A DNA stretch of 64,000 nt from Capsulimonadaceae bacterium (lineage in GTDB: Bacteria; Armatimonadota; Armatimonadia; Armatimonadales; Capsulimonadaceae), in contig OZ244065.1 in assembly GCA_965215505.1 (NCBI GenBank), positions 3,488,001 to 3,552,000 on the forward strand, given 5' to 3'. The notes below the pieces were generated by a model, which made no database searches, was not told where the DNA came from, and worked only from the letters and a program-made list of their open reading frames with translations. The position numbers and the translations under genes were made by a program. Below, one piece after another: positions 2,451-63,646 of this stretch. Numbering within the stretch: the first letter of the stretch is position 1; the number at the start of each line of letters is the position of its first letter.

Positions 2451-2643
2451 GGCACGCGCAGATGCGTGGCTTCTGCCGCTCGGCGTTGAGGAAAGCTACC
2501 CCCGTCCCCCCGCTTGCGCGTCGGACAATTCCTCTTGCGAGGAGGGCCGGTTGCCCGGAAGGGTAGCCGTCGTCATTATAGCATATCGGTCAGGTGATGG
2601 CAGGCTCCATGCCAGAGGGCGGAGGGCTGAGATGAGATCGGGA

Positions 2644-2773
2644 CGAGTGATTAAAATCACTCGCTCCTGTCGGACCTGTCCAGGGGACAGAAGAAGGAGA
2701 GGGCGCTGCCGTCCATGTCGCTCCCCTTGTCCCCTGGACAAATCCGGCGGCAGCGAGTGATTTCAATCACTCG
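2644..2773. repeat. Family A REP doublet (REPIN-like), copy 1
   Basis: Inverted arms CGAGTGATT(G/A)AAATCACTCG...TGTCCAGGGGACA around a spacer. Confidence 0.9.
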
Positions 2774-2854
2774 GCCTGTCTCGGCCCCGCTTGGCCTGTC
2801 CGTTTCAGCCAGCCTCGACCACTGGCCCGTAGCTTCACCCAATGAGCCGTTGAA

Positions 2855-4550: not shown

Positions 4551-4556
4551 GAGCCA

Positions 4557-4605
4557 CCGGCCATGAATGGCCGGCCTACTCCTGAGTGAAAACCCCTCCG
4601 GGGTT
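4557..4605. repeat. Family C REP arm
   Basis: CCGGCCATGAATGGCCGGCCTACT...AACCCCTCCGGGGTT; recurs at 28052, 28258, 48666, 63497 and 63601. Confidence 0.85.
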
Positions 4606-4965
4606 GGGGACTCGCTCGTCCTGTTCAAAGACCACGTCCGCGAGCTGCACGAGCTGACCCCCGCCGTGCAGTCCGCCTTGTTCCAGGAGGTCATGGCGGC
4701 GACGAACGCCCTCGTCAAAACCTGGAACCCCTGGAAGATGAACCACGCCTGCTACGGCAACGCCGAGGCGCACGTCCACTGGCACCTGTTCCCCCGCTAC
4801 GAGAGCCTGCCCGACCACCGCAACAACCCCTGGCTCCACGCCGCCGAGTTCGGGGACCATCGGATAGACGCCCAGGCGGCGCGGGAACTGGCGCGGCGGG
4901 TGCGTGAAAACCTGGCGGCAACGGTGAGGGGCGGGGAGAGAGAGGGGAGGCAGGACGAGACGTAG
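4567..4965 (+). pseudogene. HIT-family hydrolase, N-terminus apparently replaced by a REP
   Basis: GN..AHVHWHLFPRY HIT motif; usual N-terminal part is absent; the ATG lies inside the family C hairpin. Confidence 0.7.
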
Positions 4966-4976
4966 ACGAGTGAAGA

Positions 4977-5106
4977 CGAGTGATTGAAATCACTCGCTCC
5001 TGTCGGACCTGTCCAGGGGACAGAAGAAGGAGAGGGCGCTGCCGTCCATGTCGCTCCCCTTGTCCCCTGGACAGGTCCGGCGGCAGCGAGTGATTTCAAT
5101 CACTCG
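4977..5106. repeat. Family A REP doublet, copy 2
   Basis: Near-identical to 2644-2773, including the spacer. Confidence 0.92.
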
Positions 5107-5148
5107 TCTGCTTTCCCTTCCCCTCTACCGGCCCGGACGGTGGGCGGC

Positions 5149-9528: not shown

Positions 9529-9597
9529 TCGGGGCATTAGATTGGGCATTAGTCACTGACGGTTCGCGTCAGTCGAGGCCGCCGGGACGGGGTGGGA

Positions 9598-9751
9598 CGA
9601 GTGATTGAAATCACTCGCTTCGCTCTGGACCTGTCCAGGGGACAGAAGAGGGGGCAGGAGGGGCGAGGCAGAGGAGGCCGGTCCTGTCCCTCTGCTCCGC
9701 TCCCTTGTCCCCTGGACAAATCCGGCGGCAGCGAGTGATTTCAATCACTCG
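9598..9751. repeat. Family A REP doublet, copy 3
   Basis: Same arms with a different spacer; lies between convergent genes. Confidence 0.9.
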
Positions 9752-9798
9752 GCCCACCCCCGCACTCGGCCTACCACGGCCCGTCTTGGTGGGTCAGG

Positions 9799-14889: not shown

Positions 14890-14992
14890 GGGGGGCGCGG
14901 ATCTAGGAAAGAGGGCGCGGATCTAGGAAAGAGGGCGCGGCAAGACAAGAGGGCGCGGCAAGACAAGAGGGCGCGGCAAGCGGCGCCCCTAC
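14890..14992. repeat. Stuttered tandem repeats ending in a GTAG-type REP
   Basis: GGGCGCGGATCTAGGAAAGA x2 and GGGCGCGGCAAGACAAGA x2, then GGGCGCGGCAAGCGGCGCCCCTAC. Confidence 0.8.
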
Positions 14993-17173: not shown

Positions 17174-17236
17174 CCACGACGGGACCGGACCACGACGGGA
17201 CCGGACCACGACGGGACCGGACCACGACGGGACCGG
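17174..17236. repeat. 16-bp tandem repeat, about 4 copies
   Basis: CCACGACGGGACCGGA repeated without spacers. Confidence 0.85.
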
Positions 17237-17260
17237 CGCGTTGATTAGGCCCGCAAGAAC

Positions 17261-17470
17261 CCGGCCCTGAAGGGCCGGTCTAAGGTTTCATTGGGGTATT
17301 CCCGGCTCCGCCGGTGGGCCGCCCCTTCGGGGCTGAGGACAGGAGGGCAGAAAAGAGGTCACGGCGGGGGAAAGAGGTCGCGGCAAGCGGCGCCCTACGA
17401 GGCCTGAACGATGCCGTCCGAAGCCCCGAAGGGGCGGCCCATCCGTGTAGACCGGCGGTTCAACGCCGGG
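17261..17470. repeat. Family B doublet with a nested GTAG-type REP
   Basis: CCGGCCCTGAAGGGCCGGTCTAAGGTTTCATTGGGGTATTCCCGG arm; opposite arm at 17418-17470. Confidence 0.85.
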
Positions 17471-21618: not shown

Positions 21619-22133
21619 TCACGCCAGCCGCCCCAGCACTTCCTCCCAGCGGGCGCTATCGAAGCGCACCTGCCAGGCGAAGGGCCGGCCCTTGCGGTCG
21701 TAATAGACGGCCATCGCCGACTTCGCCACATGGCGCGGCTCGGTCGCCAGCAGTTCCCCGCAAGGCCCGCGTCCCGCACATAGGCGACCGCGTGCTTGCC
21801 GCTCATGCGCCAGGCCCGCCCGCCCTCGCCGGTGAAGTAGGCGGCAGGAGTCTCGGCCACGGCGCGGGCCGGGGCGGGTGCCTTGGCCGGGGCCTTGAGG
21901 GGCGGCTTGGGCGTCGCGGGCGGCTTGACGGCCACGGGCGGCTTGGCGGGCGGGGCCGCCTTCACGGGGGCGGGCGCTTTGACGGCGGCGGGCGCTTTGA
22001 CGGCGGCGGGGCGCTTGGCGGGCGCGGGGGCCGGCATGTCGGAAAAGAGGTCAAGGACGGCGGGCCTCTCGGCGGTCTTGATCTCGGCGGTCTTGATCTC
22101 GGCGGTCGTCTTGGCGGGCGGCGTCTTTCTCAT
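21619..22133 (-). CDS. Hypothetical protein with a Pro/Ala/Lys linker, frameshifted at ~21756-21759
   Basis: ATG overlaps the upstream stop; adding one G restores ...LAGELLATEPR...RWEEVLGRLA*. Confidence 0.55.
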
Positions 22134-22612
22134 GGGCGGTGTCCTCGGAAGCGGGTTTGCCGATTCGCGTTCGGCTTCGGGTTCGTTTTGGCATTTTTCG
22201 GCGCGCGCAGCAGGGCGGGCAGGTCGGCGGCGGGGAAGGCCAGCCAGATCTGCACCCCCGCCCACTCGGGCCGCAGGGAGTAGGACGCTTCCGCCCCGGC
22301 CTCCGCCGTGACCGAATCCCCCGTGACGACGGGGCCGCCGGGGAGGGCGGCCAGCCGCGTCCGCAGATACCGGCACAGGTCGGGCGCGTCCGGCCCGACG
22401 ACGCGGAACCGGGCGGAGACGGCGCGGGCGGGCGGCGTCGCCAGGGCGGTCTTCTTCTGGGCGGCAAGCTCCGCGCGCCAGGCCCGCTCGAACAGCCGCG
22501 CCCGGTCATTGCCCCGGCCCGCCGCGAGGGGGACGTCGAAGCGCAGCTCGCAGGTGGCGTCCGGCGGCCGGGAGGCGTCTGAGGCTAGGGTCTGGTCCAG
22601 GGTGTCCGGCAT
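22130..22612 (-). CDS. Hypothetical protein, leaderless
   Basis: ATG lies 6 nt after TATAAT of a consensus promoter. Confidence 0.65.
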   Translation of the reverse strand: MPDTLDQTLASDASRPPDATCELRFDVPLAAGRGNDRARLFERAWRAELAAQKKTALATPPARAVSARFRVVGPDAPDLCRYLRTRLAALPGGPVVTGDSVTAEAGAEASYSLRPEWAGVQIWLAFPAADLPALLRAPKNAKTNPKPNANRQTRFRGHRP

Positions 22613-22618
22613 GGCACC

Positions 22619-22648
22619 ATTATAGCAAACAAATGTTTGCCCTGTCAA
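22619..22648 (-). promoter_or_regulatory. Sigma70 promoter with a palindromic operator in the spacer
   Basis: TTGACA-18-TATAAT; spacer contains GCAAAC-ATTT-GTTTGC. Confidence 0.75.
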
Positions 22649-22743
22649 GCGGGAGTTTCGGGGCGTTTTGGGGGGTGGCGGCGGGGGCATGAGCGAGGGC
22701 GGCGGGGGGGGGCAGGACGACGAGAGGTGAGGACGAGTGAGGA

Positions 22744-22905
22744 CGAGTGAATGAATTCACTCGCTGCCGCCGGACCTGTCCAGGGGACAGAGGAAAGAGT
22801 GGACAAGAAGGCGCGAGGGGACAAGCAACGGCAGCCCACCCCTGCCTGACCCGCTTCACTGTCCCCTGGACAGGTCCGAGAGGAGCGAGTGATTTCAATC
22901 ACTCG
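22744..22905. repeat. Family A REP doublet, copy 4 (3' flank of tnpA)
   Basis: Arms CGAGTGAATGAATTCACTCG / CGAGTGATTTCAATCACTCG. Confidence 0.92.
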
Positions 22906-22947
22906 TCCTTACCCGCTCGTCCTTACCCGCTCGTCCTCACCCGCTGC

Positions 22948-23373
22948 TCACCTCTCGTCGTCCTCCGGCGAGGGTTCCCACTCCTTCCACAGATCGCCCG
23001 CCGCATGGTGGCTCTCCTGATTCTGGACATAGGCCCGCACGCGCGGGACGTCGGCAGGGCTGACGGTGGTTCCGTCGTAGCCCTCCTGCCACTTCAGGAA
23101 CAGCGTCACGGGGAGGAGGCCGTTCGCATAGCGGGCGGAGACGCCTTTGGCCTGTTTCACCGCCTGCGCCGGGGCGAGCGTACTCGGCATCTCCAGGAGC
23201 AGATGCACATGGTCGGGCATCCCGCCCAGGGCGAGTACGGTACACCCCATCTGGCGGCACTCGTGATGGATGCAGCCGTAAACCAGCGGCTTCCACTCCG
23301 GGACTAATACGTCTTCACGCCTCTTCGTGGCCCAAACGAAGTGTGAATAGAGTTGCGTCCTGCTTCGCGGCAT
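22948..23373 (-). mobile_element. tnpA: IS200/IS605-family HUH (Y1) transposase, REP-associated (RAYT-like)
   Basis: HFVWATKRR, DHVHLL (HUH), WQEGY and YVQNQ..HH motifs; AAGGAGG RBS; no tnpB; flanked by family A doublets. Confidence 0.92.
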
Positions 23374-23430
23374 TTGTTCCCCCTCCTTAGGAGTCAAGCC
23401 AGGTCAAGCGATGTCAGGCGGGCATCAGGA

Positions 23431-23551
23431 CGAGTGAATGAATTCACTCGCTATGTGCGGACCTGTCCAGGGGACAGAAGACCCGTCCCCGACCACCTAT
23501 TCCCTTGTCCCCTGGACAAATCCTGCGTCAGCGAGTGAATTCATTCACTCG
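23431..23551. repeat. Family A REP doublet, copy 5 (5' flank of tnpA)
   Basis: Both arms are the GAATGAATTC variant. Confidence 0.92.
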
Positions 23552-23600
23552 TTCGTTCCCTTGCTCGTTCATTCCCTTGCCGGTTCATTCCCCTCCCCTC

Positions 23601-25409
23601 TCACCGCACCCGCACCGTGACCACCATTGGCGGGGCGGATGCGGGGAAGGTGAGGGTGCGCGTCACCGTCCGGCCCCGCGCGTCCGTCACGGTGACGCGG
23701 TAGTCGCCGTAGAAGACGCGGCAGGTCAGGGACCCGCGCGCGTCGGCCTTCCCCGTGTCATCTGTCCACCACTGTTTGTGGATCAGGCCCAGCAGGCGCG
23801 TGTAAGCGGGCTTGGGGGTCATGTCCTTCCGCACCAGGCCCGCCGGGGCACCCTGCCAGGCGTTCCGGTCGCTGAAGTCCCACCAGGTGATCGCGCGGAC
23901 GGACGGGTGGCTGAACAGGACGCTGTAGAACTGCGCGACATAGTCGGCCTGCTTCGCCTCGCCTGCGGGCGTCGTGTCCCAGCCGGTCAGGGTGGCGTTG
24001 GTCGGGTTGTCCCGGCGCGGGCCGCTGAGGACGGTGGTTTCGGTGAAGTGGAGGGGGCGGCCGAACTGGGCGAAGGTCTGGCAGACGGCCCAGACCTTGG
24101 TGAGCGGCCACTCGCCGGTGTGCATGTGCGACTGGAGGCCGACGACGTCGGGCAGCTTGCCGTCCTTCTGGAGCTTGGTGAGCAGGGCGACGTTGCTCTC
24201 GCCGGTGTCGTAGTCGTTGTAGAGGAACGTCTCCGGCAGGCCCCGCCCCGCGTCGCGCGCCCAGCCCAGGGCGGTTTCGACGACGGGGGCGGGTCCGTCG
24301 CGCTTGATCCAGTTGGCCTCGCCGTTCGGGGGCGTGTGGCCCGCCGCGCCGTTGGCCTCATTCAGCACGTCCCAGACGTGGATGGTGTCTTTGTACCGGG
24401 GGACCAGGTCAAGAACGCGGGCGTGGAGCAGGGGGATGGCGGCCTCCGGGTCGGTCGGTGCCCAGCCGGGCCAGACCTCGTGCCAGACCAGCGGGTGGCC
24501 CTTGACGACGACGCCATGGGCGACGCTCCACGTTGCCAGCGTTTGCAGGCGGGCGTAGTCGGGTTTGCCCTGGGCGCTTTCAAACGCGCCCCAGTAGAAG
24601 GGCAGGGTGGCGTAGTTGAGCAGGCCGGTGAACTCGGCCTGGTACGCGCGCTGGGCCGGCGAGGCATCGGCGGGGTCCAGGCCGAAGAAGTTGCAGCCGA
24701 ACAGGAAGGCGTGGCGCGTCTGGGCCAGATGGATGGATACGCCCGGCACGGGTTTCCCCTGGGCGTCCACGACCCGGACGGTCAGTGTCCCCTTGCGGTA
24801 CTTCTCGATGCGCGCCTTGATGGCGGCGGGCTGGAGGGCGGCCTGGGCGGCGGCGATGGCGGGGTCCAGGCCCTCGTCGGTGACACTGATCTGCATCAGG
24901 TCCACGGTCCCCGCCGACTGGCCCATCTGGAGGTGGGCGTTCAGGCCGTAGCCGGGGGCGACGCCGCTGATGGAATAGGTCTGCCACTGCGGGGTCAGGG
25001 TGAAGGTCTGCACGGCGGCCGGGTCATAGGGGGGGCCGTTGCGCTCGACGGTGGCGCGCAGCGGGTTGCGGGTGGCCGAGCGCGCCCAGAAGGTCAGGCG
25101 GACGCGGTGGCCTTCGGGGATGACGGCGGGGATGTCTCGGGTGATCTGGACGAGGTAGAACGGGTCGGACGGCGTCTTGACGGTGACGCGCAGCAGGGGC
25201 GGGTCGCCGTCGGTGAGCGGGACGGTCGAGAGCGCGGCGTCGCCGGGGCGGGGGGCGCTGAGGGACCATTCGCCCGGCGCGAGCAGGTCCCCCGAAGCGG
25301 GCGGGGCGGCGGGCGCGGCGTAGGCGGGGAGTGTGCGGGAGAAGAACGGGAGGAGCAGGAGGAGAAGGCTGAGAAGGCGGTGGGCGGGCAGGCGGGACGG
25401 CGGTGTCAT
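23601..25409 (-). CDS. GH10 endo-1,4-beta-xylanase-like protein with an N-terminal CBM-like domain
   Basis: KGHPLVW, WDVLNE, YNDY, GLQSH, HFTE, PKPAY; signal peptide. Confidence 0.92.
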   Translation of the reverse strand: MTPPSRLPAHRLLSLLLLLLPFFSRTLPAYAAPAAPPASGDLLAPGEWSLSAPRPGDAALSTVPLTDGDPPLLRVTVKTPSDPFYLVQITRDIPAVIPEGHRVRLTFWARSATRNPLRATVERNGPPYDPAAVQTFTLTPQWQTYSISGVAPGYGLNAHLQMGQSAGTVDLMQISVTDEGLDPAIAAAQAALQPAAIKARIEKYRKGTLTVRVVDAQGKPVPGVSIHLAQTRHAFLFGCNFFGLDPADASPAQRAYQAEFTGLLNYATLPFYWGAFESAQGKPDYARLQTLATWSVAHGVVVKGHPLVWHEVWPGWAPTDPEAAIPLLHARVLDLVPRYKDTIHVWDVLNEANGAAGHTPPNGEANWIKRDGPAPVVETALGWARDAGRGLPETFLYNDYDTGESNVALLTKLQKDGKLPDVVGLQSHMHTGEWPLTKVWAVCQTFAQFGRPLHFTETTVLSGPRRDNPTNATLTGWDTTPAGEAKQADYVAQFYSVLFSHPSVRAITWWDFSDRNAWQGAPAGLVRKDMTPKPAYTRLLGLIHKQWWTDDTGKADARGSLTCRVFYGDYRVTVTDARGRTVTRTLTFPASAPPMVVTVRVR

Positions 25410-25500
25410 GGGAAAGTCTCCGGGGGAATGAGATTCGCGTGAAGGGCGGCATGACGCGGTCATGTCGCCTGATGCTCGGTGCGGCGGCTGCATCGGAGCG

Positions 25501-25668
25501 CCACGGGTTGAAACCCGAGGCTGACAAAAGCCCACTGTCGAAGCGACGTTAAGACAAAGACGCAGAGCGGAGACGCAGGGCAGAACGGAGCGACTGCACC
25601 CGACTGGCTGCCCGGAGGGCAGACCTGGAAGGCGGCGGGCTTTTTGCGCCTCGGGTTTCAGCCCGTGG
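25501..25668. repeat. Family G REP doublet
   Basis: CCACGGGTTGAAACCCGAGGC...GCCTCGGGTTTCAGCCCGTGG inverted arms; same design at 61457-61594. Confidence 0.75.
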
Positions 25669-25857: not shown

Positions 25858-25903
25858 GCTGTCTCCACAAGGCGTTGCCCCGTGCGTCCCGGCGCGGGCG
25901 TGT

Positions 25904-26242
25904 CCCGGCCCTGAAGGGCCGGTCTAAGGTTTCATTGGGGTATTCCCGGTTTCGCCGGTGGGCCGCCCCTTCGGGGCTTCGGATGTTGCTGCCGGACAAT
26001 GCTGGCCGGGCTTCGTAGGGGCGGGGTCCCCCCGCCCTCTTTGTCCTTCGCCTTTTTTGTCCTGTCGCGCCCTCGACGGGGGGCGGACAAGGAGAGGAAG
26101 GGGAAGAAGGAGGGCGGGGGGACACCGCCCCTACGCGGTCCGAATGATCCGAATGATGCCATCCGAAGCCCCGAAGCGGGCGGCCCACCGGTGGAGCCGG
26201 GAATACCCCAATGAAACCTTAGACCGGCCCTTCAGGGCCGGG
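25904..26242. repeat. Full family B doublet with two nested GTAG-type REPs
   Basis: About 78-bp inverted arms; internal GTAGGGGCGGGG... and ...CCGCCCCTAC. Confidence 0.9.
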
Positions 26243-26323
26243 TCTGATCCGGCCGGTGGCTTAACGCCGGGTCGCATTGCCGCTACTATACCACATCCCG
26301 CCCGCTTTACGTCCGGAACAAGA

Positions 26324-27088: not shown

Positions 27089-28015
27089 CTAGGGATACCG
27101 GGCCAGCAGCCGCCGCGCCTGCGCCGCCGTGGCCGCATCGCCATGCGCGCTGACCTCCGACCATTCGCGCCGCGCATCCGCCTTCTGGCCGTCGGCGTAG
27201 AGGGCGATGCCCAGGTGCAGGCGCGCGGCGGCATCATTCGGGTCACGGGCGAGGACGGCGCGGAAGGCGGCGACCGCTTCGCGCAGGCGGCCCGCGCGGG
27301 CCAGGGCGAGGGCTGTCGCCGTAGGGGCGCCGCTTGCCGCGCCCTCCCCCCTTGCCGCGCCCTCCGTATTCCCCGGCGCGGCGGGAGGGGAGGGCGCAGG
27401 GGGAACAGGGGCATGGCGGGACAAAGAGGGCGCGGCAAGCGGCGCCCCTACGGCAGGGACGGGCAGGGCGCGGAGGGCCTGGGCGGCTTCGGCGAAGTCC
27501 GGCTTCAGGCGCAGGGCCTCGCGGTACTGGGCGGCGGCCTCGCGTCGGCGGCCGGCGTCGGCCAGGGCACCGGCGAGGTTGAAATGCAGGCGCGGGTCGG
27601 CGGGGTCGAGCGCGAGGGCCAGCCGGTACTCGGCGAGGGCGGAGGCGCTCTCGCCCCGGTCTTCCAGCAGGCCCGCCAGGGCGTTGTGCGCGGGGGCGTC
27701 GTTTGGGCGCAGGGCGACCGTCCTCCGGTACTCGGCCAGTGCTTCGCCCATCTGCCCCGCCGCCTCCAGGACGCCGGCCAGGGCGGAGTGCGCGGCGGCG
27801 TCGGCGGGGCGGAGGCGGACGGCGGCCCGGTACTCGCGGGCGGCGACGAGCGGCAGGCCCGCGCGCAGGGCGGTCTGCCCGGCCTGGAGGTGGGCGAGGA
27901 AGGGGTCGGGCGGGGCCTTCGCCTCGGACGCGCTCTGCGCCAACACGGGGGCGGCGAGCAGCAGGAGCAGGGCAGGAGAGAACAGGCGCAGGAAGAGCGG
28001 GGCGGGGCGTGTCAT
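27089..28015 (-). CDS. Secreted TPR protein with an in-frame REP doublet
   Basis: Multiple TPR motifs; GTAG arms at 27321-27344 and 27428-27451 lie inside the frame. Confidence 0.88.
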   Translation of the reverse strand: MTRPAPLFLRLFSPALLLLLAAPVLAQSASEAKAPPDPFLAHLQAGQTALRAGLPLVAAREYRAAVRLRPADAAAHSALAGVLEAAGQMGEALAEYRRTVALRPNDAPAHNALAGLLEDRGESASALAEYRLALALDPADPRLHFNLAGALADAGRRREAAAQYREALRLKPDFAEAAQALRALPVPAVGAPLAAPSLSRHAPVPPAPSPPAAPGNTEGAARGEGAASGAPTATALALARAGRLREAVAAFRAVLARDPNDAAARLHLGIALYADGQKADARREWSEVSAHGDAATAAQARRLLARYP

Positions 28016-28051
28016 GGGGTCATCATACCCCGGCGGGGCGCTGGAGAGGCA

Positions 28052-28307
28052 CCGGCCATGAATGGCCGGCCTACTCTTGCATCTAAGTCGCTCCGCGACT
28101 GAAGACAGGGCGGACAGGAAGGGCGAACACAGGAAGGGCGAACACAGGAAGGGCGAACACAGGAAGGGCGAACACAGGAAGGGCGAACACAGGAAGGGCG
28201 AACACAGGAAGGGCGAACACAAGGTTCGCCCCTACGACCTGTGCGTCTGCAATCTCCAACCCCGGAGGGGTTTCCACTCGAGGAGTAGACCGGCCATTCA
28301 TGGCCGG
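28052..28307. repeat. Family C doublet containing a 15-bp x7 tandem array and a GTAG REP
   Basis: AGGAAGGGCGAACAC x7 (28116-28220), then AAGGTTCGCCCCTAC. Confidence 0.9.
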
Positions 28308-33596: not shown

Positions 33597-33798
33597 CCCG
33601 GCGTTAAACCGCCGGTCCACACGGACGGGCCTCCCGCTTCGGGGCTTCGGAAAAAGGGCGCGGGTGAAATGAGAGGGCGCAGCAAGCAGCGCCCCTACAA
33701 TACGCAGAATGATGTTGTCCGAAGCCCCGAAGTGGGCGGCCCACCGGCGAAGCCGGGAATACCCTAATGAAACCTTAGACCGGCCCTTCAGGGCCGGG
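33597..33798. repeat. Family B doublet with a nested GTAG REP
   Basis: Arms at 33597-33650 and 33718-33798. Confidence 0.85.
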
Positions 33799-33976
33799 GA
33801 CGATGGGCCGGGTCATATCCATGGCGAGCGCTGGGGCCGCACGCCGGGGGCTTTTTCCTGTCACCCGTCTGCACGGGGGTGTCGGAATGAACAAATGGGG
33901 GCGGCAGGCGTTCTATAAAGCAAACACCCCCATCAAGGCCGATGAACGAAAAACGACTGAAAGGCGACCCGTTCCC

Positions 33977-37918: not shown

Positions 37919-38085
37919 CCTCTCCCGCCGCGCGAGCGCGGCACCCTCCCCTCGGAGGGAAGGGGTTTAGAACTAGCCCGGATAGCGGCCTTTGTCTCCC
38001 GCCACTGGGCCAGTGACCGCGCCCGTTGTCCGGAACCCTTCCCTCCGAGGGGAGGGGTGCCGCGCTCGCGCGGCGGGAGAGGATC
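37919..38085. repeat. Family D inverted-repeat element, copy 1
   Basis: CCTCTCCCGCCGCGCGAGCGCGGCACCCTCCCCTCGGAGGGAAGGG and its reverse complement. Confidence 0.9.
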
Positions 38086-38092
38086 GAGACGC

Positions 38093-41000
38093 CTACGCCG
38101 CCGCCAATTCCCGCCCCGCCTCCCGCCACTCGTCCCCCGCCCCGCCGCCGGTGTTGGCCGGGGGGCCAGCCGCGCCGCGCGCCGGGGGCAGCAAAGCTTC
38201 CAGGCGCTCGGGCGGGACGGGCGGGCTGAACAGGAAGCCCTGCATCTGGTCGCAGCCGAGACGCGCCAGGGTCCGCCGCTGCCCCTCGCGCTCCACCCCC
38301 TCGGCGATCACCTCCAGCGACAGGGCGTGGGCCATGTCAATGACGGCCCGGACGACGGCCTCGTCGTGGAGGCCGTCCTCATCCCCGCCCCCCTCGCCGT
38401 TCCCCTCGCCACGGTCCGCGCCGTCCCCGGCCGCGTTCCCGGCCAGGCCGAGGACGAACGAGCGGTCCACCTTCAGGACGTCGAGCGGCAGGCGGCGCAG
38501 GTAGGACAGCGACGAGTAGCCCGTCCCGAAGTCGTCCACCGACAGCCGGATGCCCAGGGCGCGCAGCGCGTTCAGGCGGCCCGCCGCCGTCTCGCCCAGG
38601 CCGTCCGCTCCTCTGCCGTCCGCTCCTCTGCCGTCCGCTCCTCTGCCGTCCATCCCCTTCCCGTTCAGGTTCTCGATTAGGGCGCTCTCGGTCAGCTCCA
38701 GGTCCAGCAGGCGCGGGTCCAGCCCCGCCGCATCCAGGGCGGCCCGGACGGAGGGGACCAGGCCGCGCTCGCCGAGCTGGCGGGCGGACAGGTTGACCGA
38801 GACGCGCAGGGGGCGGCCCTCGCGCGCCCAGACGGCGGCCTGGCGGCAGGCCTCCCGCAGCACCCAGTCGCCGAGCGGGACGATCAGGCCGGTCTCCTCG
38901 GCCAGCGGGATGAAGCGGCCCGGCGAGACCATGCCCCACTCGGGGTGACGCCAGCGGACGAGGGCCTCGGCCCCGACGATCTCGCCGGTGGCGGACGAGA
39001 CCTGCGGCTGATAGAAGAGGACCATCTCGCCGTGCCCGTCCGCCTCCGCCCTCTCCCCGCTTCCTTGTGCCTCGATGGCCTTCCGCAGACTGTTCTCCAC
39101 ATGGAGCCGGTCCTCGGCGGCCTCGGTCATGGCGGGCGTGAAGCGCCGCCAGCGCCCGCGCCCCTCGGACTTCGCGTGGTACATGGCGAGGTCGGCGTGC
39201 TTGAGCAGGGTCTCGGCGTCCGCGCCGTCCTCGGGGAACCGGCTGATGCCGATGGAGGCGGCGACGTGCAGCTCGTGGCCCTCGATGGTGACGGGGGCGG
39301 CCAGGCTGTCGAGCAGGTCGGCGGCGGCGGTGGCGGCGTCCTCCCCCGCCGCGCGCCCGCCTTCGGGCACCAGCAGCAGGGTGAACTCGTCGCCGCCCAT
39401 CCGGGCGAGGACGTCCTGGGGGCCGCCGTGCTGGGCGTGGCGGGCGGCGAACCGGCTGGCGACCTCCTGGAGCATGTAGTCGCCGGCGACGTGGCCGAGG
39501 CTGTCGTTGACGTGCTTGAACAGGTCGAGGTCCATGAACAGCAGCGCGAACGGCTCGGCCCGGCCGATGGCGTCGTCCAGCGCCTCGCCGAATCGGGCGC
39601 GGTTGGGCAGGGAGGTGAGCGGGTCGGTGTAGGCCTGCCAGCGGATCAGGGCGACGGCCTTCTTCTGCTCGGCCTCGGCCCGCTTCTGGGCGGTGATGTC
39701 GCGGGAGATGACCGAGGCGCCGATCAGCGCCCCGGTGTCGCTGCGGAGCGGGGAGGAGCGGAAGGAGATGTCTATCGGGGACCCGTCCTTGCGGAGCCGG
39801 GTGGTGTCGGCGATCTCCAGCGCCTCGCCCGCCTCGATGGCGGCGGCGATGCGGGCGCGCTCGGCGTGCAGGGCCGGCGGGAACAGGCGGGCGACGTTCT
39901 GCCCGATCATCTCCTCCGCCGTCCACCCGTACAGCCGCTCCGCGCTCGGGTTCCAGGTCAGGACGGTGCCGTCGAGGGTGCGGGAGACGATGGCATCGTG
40001 GGAGGAGTGGACGATGGCGGCCAGCCGGTTCAGCCCCTCCTGCCCCCGGCGGCGCTGGGTGCTGTCGAGGGCGACGCCGATCACGCCCTGCGGCGTGCCG
40101 TCCTCGCCCAGCAGCGGGAGGCACTGGGTCTCCCAGGAGTAGCCCCCCACCTCGGTGGTGTAGGTGACGGCCTCGCCGCCCAGCGCGCGCCGGATGTCGG
40201 CGAGGAGGGCGGGCGCGTCCGCGCGCAGGTCAAAGACGGACCGGCCCACCGCCTGCCCCGGCGCAAGCCCGAGCAGGCGCAGGCCCTTGCCCTCGGACAT
40301 GGTGAAGACGCCCTGGGTGTCCAGGCTGAACAGGATGAGGGGGGCGTTGTCCACCACGGTCTGGAGCCGGTCCTGCGCCTGCCGCAGCAGCTCCTCGGCC
40401 CGACGCCGGGCGGTGATGTCCTGGGCGATGCCCATGGCGGCGTCCTGCACCTCCCAGACCAGCGGGTGGGAGGTGATCTCGGCCCAGAGCAGCTCGCCCG
40501 ACTTCGTCAGGTGCCGCCAGACGCTGCCCGCCTGCGCGGTGCCGACGCTGCGGCGGACGGCGTCGCGGTCCTCGGGGGGCCGGATGTCCAGCAGGGTCAT
40601 CGCCAGGAACTCCTCCCGGCTGTAGCCGTAGCGCCGCACGGCGGCCTCGTTGACGGCCAGGAAGGCCAATGTCTGTTTGTTGTAGACCCACATCGGGAGC
40701 GGGTTCCGCTCGAACAGCAGGCGGTAGCGCACCTCGCTCTGGCGCAGGCCGTCCTGGGCGCGCAGGGCGGCGCGGAAGCCGGCCCCGGCGGCGCGGGTGA
40801 CGGCGAGGGCGAGGGCCAGCGACAGGAGGAGGATGACGCCCTGCCGGGCCTGGCCGAGCCGGAGGGTGCGCGCCCGCATCCGCGTCTCCGCCGCGCCCTT
40901 GCGGACCCGGTAGGCGTCCAGGCCCTTGCCCAGTGCGTCGAGACGGATCTCCAGGGCGTGGCGGGCGGCCGTCCCCTGCGACTCCCACAGGGCGCGCGCT

Positions 41001-42195: not shown

Positions 42196-42209
42196 GGCCG
42201 CTCGCGTCC

Positions 42210-42389
42210 GATCCTCTCCCGCCGCGCGGGCGCGGCACCCTCCCCTCGGAGGGAAGGGGTTTTAGAGTAGGAAAATCCCCTCGCCGCTTGACCAGAGGCA
42301 GGGCCTTCCTCAACGATCTTAAGGCCCTCTTGTCGGAAAACCCTTCCCTCCGAGGGGAGGGTGCCGCGCTCGCGCGGCGGGAGAGGATC
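42210..42389. repeat. Family D element, copy 2
   Basis: Intergenic; ends just before the AAAGGA RBS. Confidence 0.9.
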
Positions 42390-42415
42390 AGAAAGGATCA
42401 GAAAGGAAACCGAAC

Positions 42416-43675: not shown

Positions 43676-44572
43676 ATGACACTGGTGAAATCAGACATCC
43701 CCGAGCTGCTGACGGCCGGGCTGAAGACGGCCTTCTTCCAGACCTTCGGCGAGTCCCCGGCGCAGTGGGACAAGGTGGCGACGACCATCCCGTCCGAGCG
43801 GGACACCGAGCAGTATGCGTGGCTTGGCGCGCTGCCCGGAATGCGCGAGTTCCGCGACGAGCGGCAGCCGGGCGACCCCAAGCCTTACGCCTACGCCATC
43901 CAGAACAAGACGTGGGAGAGCACCCTCTCGGTGGACCGGGCGGCTTTGGAGGACGACCAGTACGGGCAGATCGCGCTGCGAATCCGGCAGATGGCGCGCG
44001 TCGCCAAGTCCCACCTCGACTCCATCGTCTTCGGCCTGCTGGGGACCGGGTTTAGCGCGCCCGGCTACGACGGCGTGCCGTTCTTCGGGACGCACAACCA
44101 GGGGGCGACGCTCTCCAACAAGGGGACGGACCCCCTGAGCGCGGTCGCCCTGCAAAGCGCGATCACGGCGATGATGCGCTTCACCGACGACCAGGGCCGC
44201 CCGGCGGGGACCACGCCGAACGTCCTGGTCGTGCCGCCCGAGCTGTACTGGGAGGCGACCGTCCTGCTGACGTCCGCCCTGTTCCCGGACGCGGTGACGA
44301 CGGCCGCCCAGGAGCTTGCCGCGAACCCGCTGCGCGGGATGCTGACGCTGCTCGCGACCCCGTACCTGTCGTCGCCCACGGACTGGTTCCTGCTGGACAC
44401 CTCGCGGGTCATCCGCGCCGTCGTCTTGCAGATGCGGAAGGAGTTCGAGTTCGGGTCGCTGGAGGGCAGCTCGGAGAACGGCTTCCTGCGCGACCAGTTC
44501 CTGTACGGGGTGCGGGCAAGGTACAACGCGGGCTTCGGCGACTGGCGCGCGGCCTTCGGGGCGCAGGTGTGA
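43676..44572 (+). CDS. Mu-like major capsid protein (gpT family)
   Basis: EQYAWLG.LP.MREF, IQNKTWESTL.V.R..LEDDQYG, LVVPPEL, YGVRARYNAGFG.W. Confidence 0.92.
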   Translation: MTLVKSDIPELLTAGLKTAFFQTFGESPAQWDKVATTIPSERDTEQYAWLGALPGMREFRDERQPGDPKPYAYAIQNKTWESTLSVDRAALEDDQYGQIALRIRQMARVAKSHLDSIVFGLLGTGFSAPGYDGVPFFGTHNQGATLSNKGTDPLSAVALQSAITAMMRFTDDQGRPAGTTPNVLVVPPELYWEATVLLTSALFPDAVTTAAQELAANPLRGMLTLLATPYLSSPTDWFLLDTSRVIRAVVLQMRKEFEFGSLEGSSENGFLRDQFLYGVRARYNAGFGDWRAAFGAQV

Positions 44573-44726
44573 TCCTCCCCCGTCGCGCGAGCGCGCCACC
44601 CTCCCCTCGGAGGGAAGGGGGCTTCCAGGAGGACGCGCGCTGCTGCGTCTTCTTTCCGCTTCCCCTCCTGTCCGGAACCCTTCCCTCCGAGGGGAGGGTG
44701 GCGCGCTCGCGCGACGGGAGAGGATC
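44571..44726. repeat. Family D element, copy 3
   Basis: Starts within the capsid stop codon and ends at the next RBS. Confidence 0.88.
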
Positions 44727-44743
44727 AGAAAGGAACCCGCATC

Positions 44744-46241: not shown

Positions 46242-46449
46242 TCCTCTCCCGTCTCGCAAGCTCGCCACCCTCCCCTCGGAGGGAAGGGGTTTTGGATAAG
46301 CCGGATAAGAGGCGAGGGCTTCCGAGAGTACGCGGGCTGCTGCGTTTTTCTGCTTTCCCTTCTGTCCGGAACCCTTCCCTCTTGTCCAGTTTGTCCGGAA
46401 CCCTTCCCTCCGAGGGGAGGGTGGCGAGCTTGCGAGACGGGAGAGGATC
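46242..46449. repeat. Family D element, copy 4
   Basis: Lies between the hydrolase stop and the portal RBS. Confidence 0.88.
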
Positions 46450-46464
46450 AAAAGGAAACCCACC

Positions 46465-48472: not shown

Positions 48473-48487
48473 GTCCCAGCGGAGAGG

Positions 48488-48716
48488 CCCGGCCCTGAAG
48501 GGCCGGGCTACTGGTGAATGGAAGTGTCTCCGACACTGAGGACGGGATCAGGACAGGAGGGCGAACACCAGGGGGGCGCGGCAAGAGAAGAGGGTACGGC
48601 AATCAGCGCCCCTACCATAAGCCATCCCCGATCTGTCTTCCTCTGTCTTTCTCTCTTCCTCTCTTCAACCGCGGAGCGGTTTTCACTCAAGAGTAGCCCG
48701 GCCATTCATGGCCGGG
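48488..48716. repeat. Hybrid B/C doublet with a nested GTAG REP
   Basis: Left arm CCCGGCCCTGAAGGGCCGGGCTAC; right arm GTAGCCCGGCCATTCATGGCCGGG. Confidence 0.8.
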
Positions 48717-48798
48717 GGGCCCCTCTGCTCCGCATCGGGTGTATTGCCTACAGACTCGATACCCGATGCGTGACGCCCGACGCAGGAGAGGCCGCCCT

Positions 48799-49143: not shown

Positions 49144-49200
49144 GGCGGCCCGACCCGGCCCCGCCCGAGGACCCGCCGCGCCGTCCTGGCCGGGCTGGGA

Positions 49201-49346
49201 CGAGTGATTGAAATCACTCGCTGACGCCGGATTTGTCCAAGGGACAAGGGATTGGAATGACGCCTACGGCCCGCCCTGCCCCCGTCCTGTCTCCTTCTTC
49301 TGTCCCCTGGACAGGTCCTCGCGCAGCGAGTGATTTCAATCACTCG
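49201..49346. repeat. Family A REP doublet, copy 6
   Basis: Same arms as the other family A copies. Confidence 0.9.
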
Positions 49347-49545
49347 TCCGGCTCGTCCGGCTCCCGTCCTGCTCTGTTACGGCCCGACCAACAAGCGCAC
49401 CGGGACGCCCGTCTGCATCCTGTACACCGTCCTGCCGCCCGCCCCCGACGAGCCGCCCGAAACCGCCGAGTCGGTGGTCGTCCTGCTGCGCCTGCTCCAC
49501 GGCGCGCAGGCACTGCTCCCGGACGAGGCCGAGGATACCCCATGA
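49347..49545 (+). pseudogene. RelE/ParE-like toxin C-terminal remnant
   Basis: ILYTV...VVVLLRLLHGAQ; no N-terminus; stop is coupled to the next ATG. Confidence 0.6.
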
Positions 49546-54236: not shown

Positions 54237-54270
54237 TCGGGGGCCATCAGGCCACGCCGGGGCCATCGGT

Positions 54271-54511
54271 CCCGGCCCTGAAGGGCCGGTCTAAGGTTTT
54301 ATTAGGGTATTCCCGGCTCCGCCGGTGGGCCGCCCCTTCGGGGCTTCGGAGGGCATTGTTCGGACAGCGTGATGCGGGATAACGCCGTCCAGGCCTTGTA
54401 GGGGCGCTGCTTGCCGCGCCCTCCTGTTATCACCGCGCCCCCACTCTCCGAAGCCCCGAAGCGGGCGGCCCACCGGCGGAGCCGGGAGGAGACCGGCCCT
54501 TCAGGGCCGGG
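54271..54511. repeat. Family B doublet with a nested GTAG REP
   Basis: Arms at 54271-54350 and 54447-54511. Confidence 0.85.
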
Positions 54512-58699: not shown

Positions 58700-58873
58700 A
58701 ACCGGGCGCGGCGTGTCGGCCCGGGCGCGGCGTGTCGGCCCCGGCGCGGCGTGTCGGCCCCGGCGCGGCGTGTCGGCCCCGGCGCGGCGTGTCGGCCCCG
58801 GCGCGGCGGCCATCATGACCCGGCCCTGGAGGGCCGGTCTAAGGTTTTATTAGGGTATTCCCGGCTTCGCCGG
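58700..58873. repeat. About 19-20-bp tandem repeat (about 5 copies) followed by a family B arm
   Basis: CGGCGCGGCGTGTCGGCCC(C) repeats; CCGGCCCTGGAGGGCCGGTCTAAGG at ~58820. Confidence 0.85.
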
Positions 58874-58928
58874 GTCTTATCCATGGCGAATGCATCGCCC
58901 CGCGCAATCCGCCCCGCACGCCCCTTCC

Positions 58929-63438: not shown

Positions 63439-63496
63439 ACGCCATTCTATCACGCGGGCCGGCGGGCGTCAAGCGGGGGGCGTCAAGCGAAGCGCC

Positions 63497-63646
63497 CCGG
63501 CCATGAATGGCCGGCCTACTCGGGAATGAAAGCCGCTCCGCGGCTGAGGACAACGAAGGACGATAGGACAAGGCGCGGCGAGCGGGCGTGGCATATCTTC
63601 AACCCCGGAGGGGTTTTCACTCAACAGTAGCCCGGCCATTCATGGC
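63497..63646. repeat. Family C doublet
   Basis: CCGGCCATGAATGGCCGGCCTACT...GTAGCCCGGCCATTCATGGCC. Confidence 0.85.

Follow-up and report, generated by a model that had tools for sequence, protein, structure and literature searches.

A 64-kb window of contig OZ244065.1 from a Capsulimonadaceae bacterium (Armatimonadota) contains tnpA, a small gene for an HUH/Y1 transposase, and on both sides of it lie inverted pairs (doublets) of a palindromic repeat, which we call family A. The tnpA open reading frame (ORF) is intact and is the only one with a family match in the region 22744..23551. Its product matches Pfam Y1_Tnp (PF01797) with an E value of 2.9e-24 (85.9 bits against a cut-off of 23), and the Pfam scan found this as the sole domain in the 149 residues, with no second domain. 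The catalytic and motif residues are, in the 149-aa numbering, H63-V64-H65, W103-Q104, Y123, Q127 and H130-H131. Because relatives begin at the second methionine, the true start is probably ATG 23373, which would yield a protein of 141 aa. An earlier interpretation, made from the letters of the DNA and hereafter called the sequence-only reading, had described an intact Y1 TnpA without tnpB and a doublet within about 60 bp on either side of it. Both points were borne out: there is no tnpB among the neighbouring ORFs, the inner hairpin 1 (H1) of the downstream doublet (22886-22905) ends 42 bp from the tnpA stop, and that of the upstream doublet starts at 23431, 33 bp from the ORF start at 23397 and 57 bp from ATG 23373.

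Counts of family A and of tnpA cover the 64-kb window. A pattern for H1 gave 12 matches, when 0 were expected from 100 shuffles, and the 12 sites form six inverted doublets (2644/2754, 4977/5087, 9598/9732, 22744/22886, 23431/23532 and 49201/49327), all six intergenic. Four of them are the dispersed doublets that the sequence-only reading had listed at 2644, 4977, 9598 and 49201. The pattern for hairpin 2 (H2), TGTCCAGGGGACA, also had 12 matches, against 0.06 expected, with one mismatch in the copy at 49234. Each arm is about 52 nt long and consists of GGAC, H1, an invariant CT, 11-12 variable nucleotides and H2. The stem of H1 is 8 bp long and its loop is TGAA (TAAA once, in arm 2644); that of H2 is 6 bp long, with the loop AGG (AAG once, in the left arm of 49198..49349). 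The bipartite arm proposed earlier therefore holds as a layout of H1 and H2 in all 12 arms; its details changed, in that the loop of arm 2644 departs from the consensus and the arm reaches about 52 nt. All 12 arms fold into two hairpins as single-stranded DNA (ssDNA), with z between -2.8 and -4.6 (200 shuffles each). In the alignment of the 12 arms 99.4% of the cells are paired and each helix has one compensatory pair: the innermost H1 pair is T-A in eight distinct rows and A-T in three, and the outermost H2 pair is C-G in seven distinct rows, T-A in three and unpaired in one. A promoter/terminator scan found no terminator-like sites within the doublets, and no T-run follows the hairpins.

The compensatory change in H1 defines two forms of the arm, GAATGAATTC with the A-T innermost pair and the common GATTGAAATC with T-A, the TGAA loop being kept in both. 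Three of the four arms adjacent to tnpA (22744, 23431 and 23532), among them both outer ones, carry the GAATGAATTC form, as against none of the eight dispersed arms, a distribution for which our own hypergeometric estimate is 4/220 = 0.018. The earlier claim that the variant is confined to the sides of tnpA was thus confirmed, with the addition that the fourth adjacent arm (22886) is of the common GATTGAAATC type. The outer upstream arm has the orientation of the single upstream arm of relatives. Coordinates of all these features are collected in the table.

Table. Family A repeats, tnpA and neighbouring features in the window
Feature	Position	Strand	Remarks
tnpA, HUH/Y1 transposase	22948..23397	minus	149-aa ORF from TTG 23397
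Outer arm upstream of tnpA, GAATGAATTC form	23503..23554	minus	reads H1(TGAA)-CT-H2 toward the gene
Inner arm upstream of tnpA, GAATGAATTC form	23428..23479	plus	upstream doublet with 23503-23554
Inner arm downstream of tnpA, GATTGAAATC form	22857..22908	minus	
Outer arm downstream of tnpA, GAATGAATTC form	22741..22792	plus	downstream doublet with 22857-22908
Dispersed doublet	2641..2776		between an alcohol dehydrogenase (ADH)-family gene and a beta-lactamase-family gene
Dispersed doublet	4974..5109		between convergent beta-lactamase-family and aldo/keto reductase genes
Dispersed doublet	9595..9754		between two minus-strand genes (unknown; 3D domain)
Dispersed doublet	49198..49349		upstream of an NHL-repeat gene
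Tandem array, 14 nt x 3.1	22902..22945		begins in the outer half of an H1 stem
Composite palindrome	22714..22964		18-nt perfect outer inverted repeat 22714-22731 / 22947-22964
GH10 glycosidase gene	23601-25535	minus	neighbour of tnpA
ORF without Pfam match	22130-22690	minus	neighbour of tnpA

The pairing of tnpA with inverted two-hairpin arms recurs among its relatives. These were collected by a search of genome contigs, the loci being the best 80 of 110 confirmed, mostly from metagenome-assembled genomes (MAGs) of Armatimonadota; MAG assemblies may collapse identical repeats, although for several loci the assembly is at chromosome level. Of 78 cases (the window and 77 loci), 62 had 12-mers in common between the left and right 300-bp flanks of tnpA, compared with 5% at 321 random positions of these loci, and the proportion sharing at least five 12-mers was 72%, versus 1.2% at random positions. 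An inverted arm of at least 35 nt flanked tnpA in 53 of the 77 loci, with a marked dependence on phylum: 41/44 in Armatimonadota, 3/4 in Planctomycetota, 5/9 in Acidobacteriota, 1/10 in Chloroflexota and 0/4 in Bacteroidota. These arms are laid out like family A: away from the gene stands a hairpin whose loop is often TGAA, TAAA or GGA, next comes CTA, CTG or TCT, and the part near the gene forms one or two short G+C hairpins. Fold z-scores below -2 were obtained for 39 of the 53 arms of relatives, as opposed to 3 of 60 control segments, and 44 of the 53 have at least two hairpin loops. A perfect stem of at least 7 bp was present in 32 of 58 arms, against 1.9% of shuffles, and 26 of those 32 carry a TGAA-like loop in either orientation. 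Several loci have their arms within 0-40 bp of the ORF, leaving no room for separate ends of an insertion sequence (IS).

The stem sequences themselves depend on the clade and are common to members of TnpA subclades (L012/L017/L020/L037, L032/L045/L055, L016/L018/L066 and L031/L077). Arm similarity is 0.66 where two TnpAs are at least 75% identical and 0.18 where they are below 50%, and in a Mantel test of arms against TnpA the observed value was reached by none of 999 permutations. Paralogs of the same genome can have unrelated arms, as do L002, L014 and L042, which lie on one chromosome. In L016, L018, L021 and L066 the arms (CGAG..AATGAATT..CTCGCT) have the A-T inner pair and the loop in common with the GAATGAATTC form of the window, which suggests that this form is the older one. 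Those of L016, L018 and L066, the nearest in sequence to family A, are also doublets with extra copies nearby.

The enzyme itself is of the IS200 type. TnpA passes the NCBIfam model for IS200/IS605 (NF033573; 76.6 bits, cut-off 55) and fails the model for REP_Tyr_transpos (NF047646; 21.4 bits, cut-off 80), the latter standing for the transposases of repetitive extragenic palindromic (REP) sequences, the REP-associated tyrosine transposases (RAYTs). In a sequence search of the PDB the best matches were IS200-type TnpAs (2F4F at 7.8e-12, ISDra2, and IS608 at 5.5e-7); Sulfolobus TnpAs are among the sequence and fold matches, and the E. coli RAYT chain was not matched at E values up to 1. An AlphaFold model of TnpA (pLDDT 89.2) retrieved the ISDra2 and IS608 TnpAs at the top of a fold search (E 8e-10; TM 0.73-0.75 on the target), with the RAYT structure 4ER8 at rank 30 (E 6.5e-6, 16% identity). 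The motifs of the window protein are DHVH, WQ and YVQNQESHH, the HUH, tyrosine and glutamine (Y123, Q127) being kept in the alignment. Among 85 relatives Y...Q..HH occurs in 71, DH[VI]H in 79 and WQ in 76, and Y...NP, present in the E. coli RayT reference, in none. We also built a quick maximum-likelihood tree (LG+G4, 93 rows, 149 columns), with support from the Shimodaira-Hasegawa-like approximate likelihood-ratio test (SH-aLRT) only. The branch that separates the two RAYT references has SH-aLRT 100. One side of the tree holds the five IS200/IS605 references, and the other the window protein, the loci and a Bacteroidota plasmid protein (SH-aLRT 90, not starred); the window TnpA groups with the Bacteroidota Y---Q--HH protein, apart from the five IS200 references. 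Profile scores, motifs, fold and tree hence agree that the window TnpA is IS200-like and not a canonical RAYT. The sequence-only reading had spoken of an IS200-like enzyme and had suggested placing it in a tree against RAYT and IS200 groups; the first is upheld, and the tree sets it apart from the references of both groups. Judged by its residues, it would be a TnpAY1 of the subclass 1.2 type, carrying DH[IV]H, WQ and Y---Q--HH at a length of 141-149 aa.

A homodimer model of TnpA scored 0.82, the best of three controls reaching 0.02. This mark was calibrated: it is reached by 20 of 30 proteins solved as same-chain pairs and by 1 of 23 solved single. Contact agreement between runs was at least 76% and the pLDDT of the partner at least 80. 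Since dimers of the family have already been solved, the pass may reflect likeness only; the model nevertheless suggests that TnpA probably acts as a dimer, as does IS608 TnpA, a dimer with active sites in trans (PMC3597680, in the part of that paper available). Among the best 150 representatives at 50% identity, 22 are 270-315 aa long and have two matched stretches (including P0041, P0042 and P0044). The three long ones that we read hold two complete tandem Y1 domains, each with an HUH-like and a Y...Q..[HR]H motif, the first HUH of P0042 being degenerate (DRVH). Such single-chain double proteins fit a dimer as the working unit.

Relatives of TnpA are divergent and of low copy number. The 90% cluster of the window protein has one member on two contigs (the longest 6,177,771 bp), a count to which identical copies within one contig are invisible, and the next relatives are 76% (P0002) and then 59% identical. 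In the genome-contig search the best match was 52% identical over a partial, frameshifted gene and 46% over the full length. The library of 50% representatives gave 5546 matches at E<=0.001, 1618 at E<=1e-10 and 14 at E<=1e-30, none of them more than 49% identical. Paralogs within one genome (32 pairs) are 30-87% identical and no pair reaches 90%. None of the 486 plasmid records matching TnpA does so at 60% identity or more, the best being 33%, on a 632-kb Bacteroidota replicon. Many identical IS copies without such flanks, named beforehand as what would speak against the sequence-only reading, are not what the relatives look like, most of these divergent genes being flanked by arms. In some Armatimonadota genomes two or three divergent TnpA paralogs (33-46% identical) were seen within about 6 kb, as in L037 (7863-8279, 10001-10414 and 13772-14176) and also in L042, L012 and L020.

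Synteny was compared in 40 pairs of loci with TnpAs at least 70% identical. Of these, 39 had a testable flank, and homologous neighbour genes were kept in 23 of the 39, nearly all from Armatimonadota and Chloroflexota, the pairs overlapping in clades and not being independent. Synteny was weak in 3 of the 39 and absent in 13, the latter from Phycisphaerae and Acidobacteriota clades and locus L036. Gene order thus suggests that the Armatimonadota tnpA genes mostly behave like fixed, vertically inherited genes, and that the TnpAs of the Phycisphaerae and Acidobacteriota clades appear mobile.

Evidence that the repeats move as doublets comes from 2641-2776 and 4974-5109, which are identical at 129 of 132 positions, the 38-nt spacer included. 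Their identity ends abruptly at the outer feet of H1 (GACGAGTG... on the left, ...CACTCG on the right), and no direct repeat was seen flanking them. Because the identity spans the spacer and has sharp edges, the copied unit appears to be the whole doublet. The remaining doublets have differing spacers. As this is a single pair whose members lie 2.3 kb apart, a local duplication could also have produced it.

Taken together, these results make it likely that the locus is REPtron-like, that is, a low-copy IS200-like HUH/Y1 transposase (subclass 1.2-like) kept with its own family of 52-nt two-hairpin arms. The sequence-only reading had reached the same view, which is now supported by the flanking arms of relatives, by arms that match clades, by arms specific to paralogs and by the copy of a whole doublet. 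What is known of how IS608 and E. coli TnpA-REP work allows a mechanism to be proposed; TnpA-REP is reported, in the accessible part of PMC8266576, to process folded single-stranded REPs preceded by a conserved motif. TnpA, as an IS608-like dimer, would bind H1 in ssDNA, for example on the lagging-strand template, orient itself by the hairpin loop and the CT/AG tag, and cut at the outer foot of H1. The whole doublet would then be moved or copied without target duplication, as a non-autonomous unit like the REP doublets known as REPINs, the tnpA gene itself staying in place. The outer tnpA-flanking arms, of the A-T form, would probably be the older flanks, and the dispersed T-A form a sub-lineage that spread.

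Several observations weigh against this reading. That TnpA amplifies the repeats is something we infer, and three of the four tnpA-adjacent arms differ at one stem pair from all eight dispersed ones, so that the dispersed form could be served by another paralog. The single-copy status of tnpA is judged from the 64-kb window and the cluster count. The correlation between arms and TnpA could be explained by joint vertical descent alone. Flank sequence recurs elsewhere within +-10 kb in 21 of 77 loci; in a strict arm search of all loci the arms were mostly found beside tnpA only, with fewer cases of spread than these 21, a search of low sensitivity, since it missed five of the eight dispersed arms of the window. 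A flanked tnpA alone hence does not imply spread, and the window ranks high in this respect, with four additional doublets in 63 kb. The family A arm pattern itself had no match in the 89 loci of relatives examined. In the tree the window TnpA has a long branch (1.14), within a group of 36 rows whose order is not resolved. Finally, the Phycisphaerae and Acidobacteriota TnpAs that are 80-99% identical sit in unrelated gene contexts (L058, L059, L061, L067, L073, L063, L075, L071, L076, L078 and L079), which means that parts of the family are mobile.

This last point is also what an ordinary autonomous IS would predict. Under such an explanation arm-tnpA-arm is mobile and is one of several copies, the arms are its ends, the doublets are deletion derivatives (miniature inverted-repeat transposable elements, MITEs) and nothing has been domesticated. 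It accounts well for the layout of the doublets, which is that of arm-tnpA-arm minus the gene, for a protein that passes the IS200 model and for the one genome with 87%-identical copies. The ends of IS200/IS605 elements, however, are subterminal hairpins on one strand without inverted terminal repeats, unlike the inverted arms found here. Together with the lack of nearly identical pairs within genomes and of close plasmid matches, the synteny of close pairs, mostly in Armatimonadota, and the single-member 90% cluster of the window protein, this makes the explanation unlikely. Insertion of an IS200-type gene into a cluster of REPs that was already there, whether at random or through a target preference, has a precedent in ISPpu9, described in the available part of PMC8450116 as lying within REP sequences. 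We regard it as highly improbable here, given clade-specific arms on both sides of homologous genes in most loci and arms so close to the ORF, with no other end structures.

A different objection concerns the substrate. The dispersed doublets may be host elements (terminators or RNA/protein-binding sites) or belong to another paralog, the arms beside tnpA being a regulatory sub-variant. The confinement of the variant stem pair to the sides of tnpA would fit, as would the position of the upstream doublet, which separates two genes of one strand, GH10 and tnpA, and could attenuate read-through there. Other REP-like families exist in the window without a visible tnpA, and most relatives have no spread nearby. 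Yet one of the arms adjacent to tnpA, 22886, is of the dispersed type, and the two arm types differ by one compensatory pair only. The hairpins lack the T-run of a terminator, and the closest arms among relatives are likewise doublets with additional copies in their vicinity. We therefore hold this objection to be quite unlikely to be correct, and the REPtron-like reading is the one compared below with known systems.

REPtrons are described as a RAYT/TnpA-REP gene together with REPs arranged in bacterial interspersed mosaic elements (BIMEs) or in REPIN doublets (PMC6006769, PMC8266576, PMC3116915 and PMC3337134, from the portions of these papers at hand). On that description the window resembles them in having a low-copy Y1/HUH gene, inverted palindromic flanks and the same repeats dispersed between genes as inverted doublets, with one repeat family per paralog and with synteny and vertical descent in many relatives. 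It also recalls the REPINs of Bertels and Rainey (2011) in that two inverted repeats and their spacer are copied as a unit, with six doublets in 64 kb. It differs in the protein, which fails the RAYT model, is nearer to IS200/IS605 in sequence and fold, is modelled as a dimer, and has Y---Q--HH in place of Y---NP, the motif given for class 2 RAYTs in the accessible text of PMC6006769. It differs as well in the arm, which has two hairpins. Of the GTAG tag the arm keeps only AG, since the CT that follows H1 in every arm is nnAG at the foot of the hairpin on the opposite strand. The sequence-only reading had set the arms apart as a class distinct from GTAG REPs, which overstated the case: an AG stands at the foot, and a sister family of the window has a GTAGG tag in the same layout.

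With the IS200/IS605 elements IS608 and ISDra2 the window TnpA shares family, fold, the Y---Q motif and the predicted dimer, and by analogy recognition of ssDNA hairpins would be expected; the differences are that relatives show no high-copy identical elements, that tnpB is missing and that the arms are inverted instead of being same-strand end hairpins. Closest on the protein side is TnpAY1 subclass 1.2 of Quentin et al. (2018), which the available text of PMC6006769 characterizes by Y---Q--HH, DH[IV]H and WQ, a median of 148 aa, on average 1.7 copies per genome with 36% identity, the entry "REP: no" and an occurrence mostly in Cyanobacteria and Bacteroidetes. Motifs, a length of about 148 aa, low and divergent copies and absence from plasmids agree with the proteins studied here. 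The difference is that the subclass was described, in that text, without REPs, whereas two-hairpin inverted arms are the rule in Armatimonadota and are absent from the four Bacteroidota loci. IS200 Group 3 of Bertels et al. (2017) is presented in the part of PMC5581495 consulted as free of duplicates and of plasmid copies and as rich in flanking 16-mers, as the IS200 group nearest to RAYTs and as a possible RAYT link. That an IS200-like group with RAYT-like traits exists has accordingly been flagged already, as IS200 Group 3 (PMC5581495) and as subclass 1.2 (PMC6006769), at least in these portions; our guess is that the two are the same group.

Double-palindromic flanks beside Y1 genes have been published too. 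TIRtrons, whose genes are termed TIRYTs (Di Nocera et al. 2013), are portrayed in the accessible text of PMC3733652 as Y1 genes with long inverted-repeat flanks, some of them "double palindromic", with moderately abundant families and dimers, and many terminal inverted repeats (TIRs) carry the motif GGGGWSAS. The likeness to inverted double-palindromic flanks in a dimer arrangement is evident, but TIRYTs belong mostly to class 2.1, with about 238 aa and a C-terminal helix-turn-helix (HTH)-like domain (PMC6006769, same portion), while the window TnpA is core-only at 141-149 aa and of a different protein class; GGGGWSAS is absent from the 12 family A arms. Our literature search returned no report in which Armatimonadetes or Armatimonadota appear together with REP or REPIN terms. 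Among the TnpAY1 literature matches listed, none covers such a system, and the supplement text of PMC6006769 and PMC5581495, so far as accessible, mentions no Armatimonadetes genera.

RAYTs are the textbook example of a domesticated bacterial transposase, one whose derivation from IS200 is still to be explained; the E. coli enzyme, TnpA-REP, is monomeric. The locus described here joins an enzyme that looks like IS200 in sequence, fold and predicted dimer to REPIN-like doublets at a fixed chromosomal position, and offers an enzyme-substrate pair for asking what domestication changes: monomer or dimer, recognition of the tag, one hairpin or two. Proteins of the subclass 1.2 type had been regarded as lacking repeats; outside Bacteroidota, at least, the locus corrects this, and it extends REP/RAYT-type systems to Armatimonadota. 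A bolder proposal, which we put forward tentatively and with somewhat less than even confidence, is that the Armatimonadota Y---Q--HH TnpAs might form an undescribed class of REPtron, dimeric and chromosomally fixed, in which each paralog has its own two-hairpin REPIN family (TGAA-loop hairpin, CT tag, second short hairpin). This class would be a living intermediate between IS200 and RAYT, and arrays of half-hairpins would be footprints of cleavage and joining.

Tandem arrays are frequent at the edges of the repeats. At 5 of the 12 family A arm edges there are perfect short arrays (period 9-19), which start within the outer half of the stem of a REP hairpin and extend outward from there; besides the array listed in the table, comparable ones lie at 22727-22750, 23548-23592, 4964-4983 and 49343-49363. 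Others stand beside other REP-like families of the window (14909-14980, 17174-17236, 28114-28221 and 58705-58808). In relatives, arrays of period 8-25 occur in the tnpA flanks of 20 of 73 loci, compared with 19 of 195 control windows, examples being L002 (12 nt x 11), L006 (15 nt x 8.2) and L020 (15 nt x 5.9). Hairpin slippage or repeated cleavage and joining are possible origins.

The 18-nt inverted repeat of the composite palindrome in the table encloses the downstream doublet together with its tandem arrays, and it extends over the stop codon of tnpA (22948-22950) and the last codons of the gene, so that the C-terminal residues of TnpA (..DDER) are encoded by the repeat. An Rfam scan of 22000-24200 returned plant and animal microRNA precursor models below threshold (70.6 bits at best, the gathering score being 168); these matches were discarded, because the long hairpin alone explains them. 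On the minus strand, at 22648..22619, there is a perfect sigma-70-like promoter (TTGACA, 18 nt, TATAAT, with a TG extension), which we assigned to the next gene, the ORF of unknown function that follows tnpA.

The window is unusually rich in other REP-like elements, which suggests several enzyme-repeat pairs in the source genome. A second two-hairpin family is present at 4554-4612, 28049-28107, 48486-48544, 48662-48720 (minus) and 63494-63552. It consists of a CCGGCCA-TGAA-TGGCCGG hairpin, a CCTAC tag (GTAGG on the opposite strand) and a 6-bp hairpin, in the layout of family A, and no tnpA for it was found within the 64-kb window. Its H1 and tag resemble the TnpA-flanking arms of L012, L017, L020 and L037. 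At least three further dispersed palindromic families were seen, some as inverted doublets: one at 17258-17339, 25902-25983, 26178-26248 (minus), 33734-33812 (minus), 54269-54350 and 58817-58898, one at 37919-38097, 42207-42392, 44570-44727 and 46243-46461, and one at 14946-14992, 27405-27451, 33652-33698 and 48569-48615.

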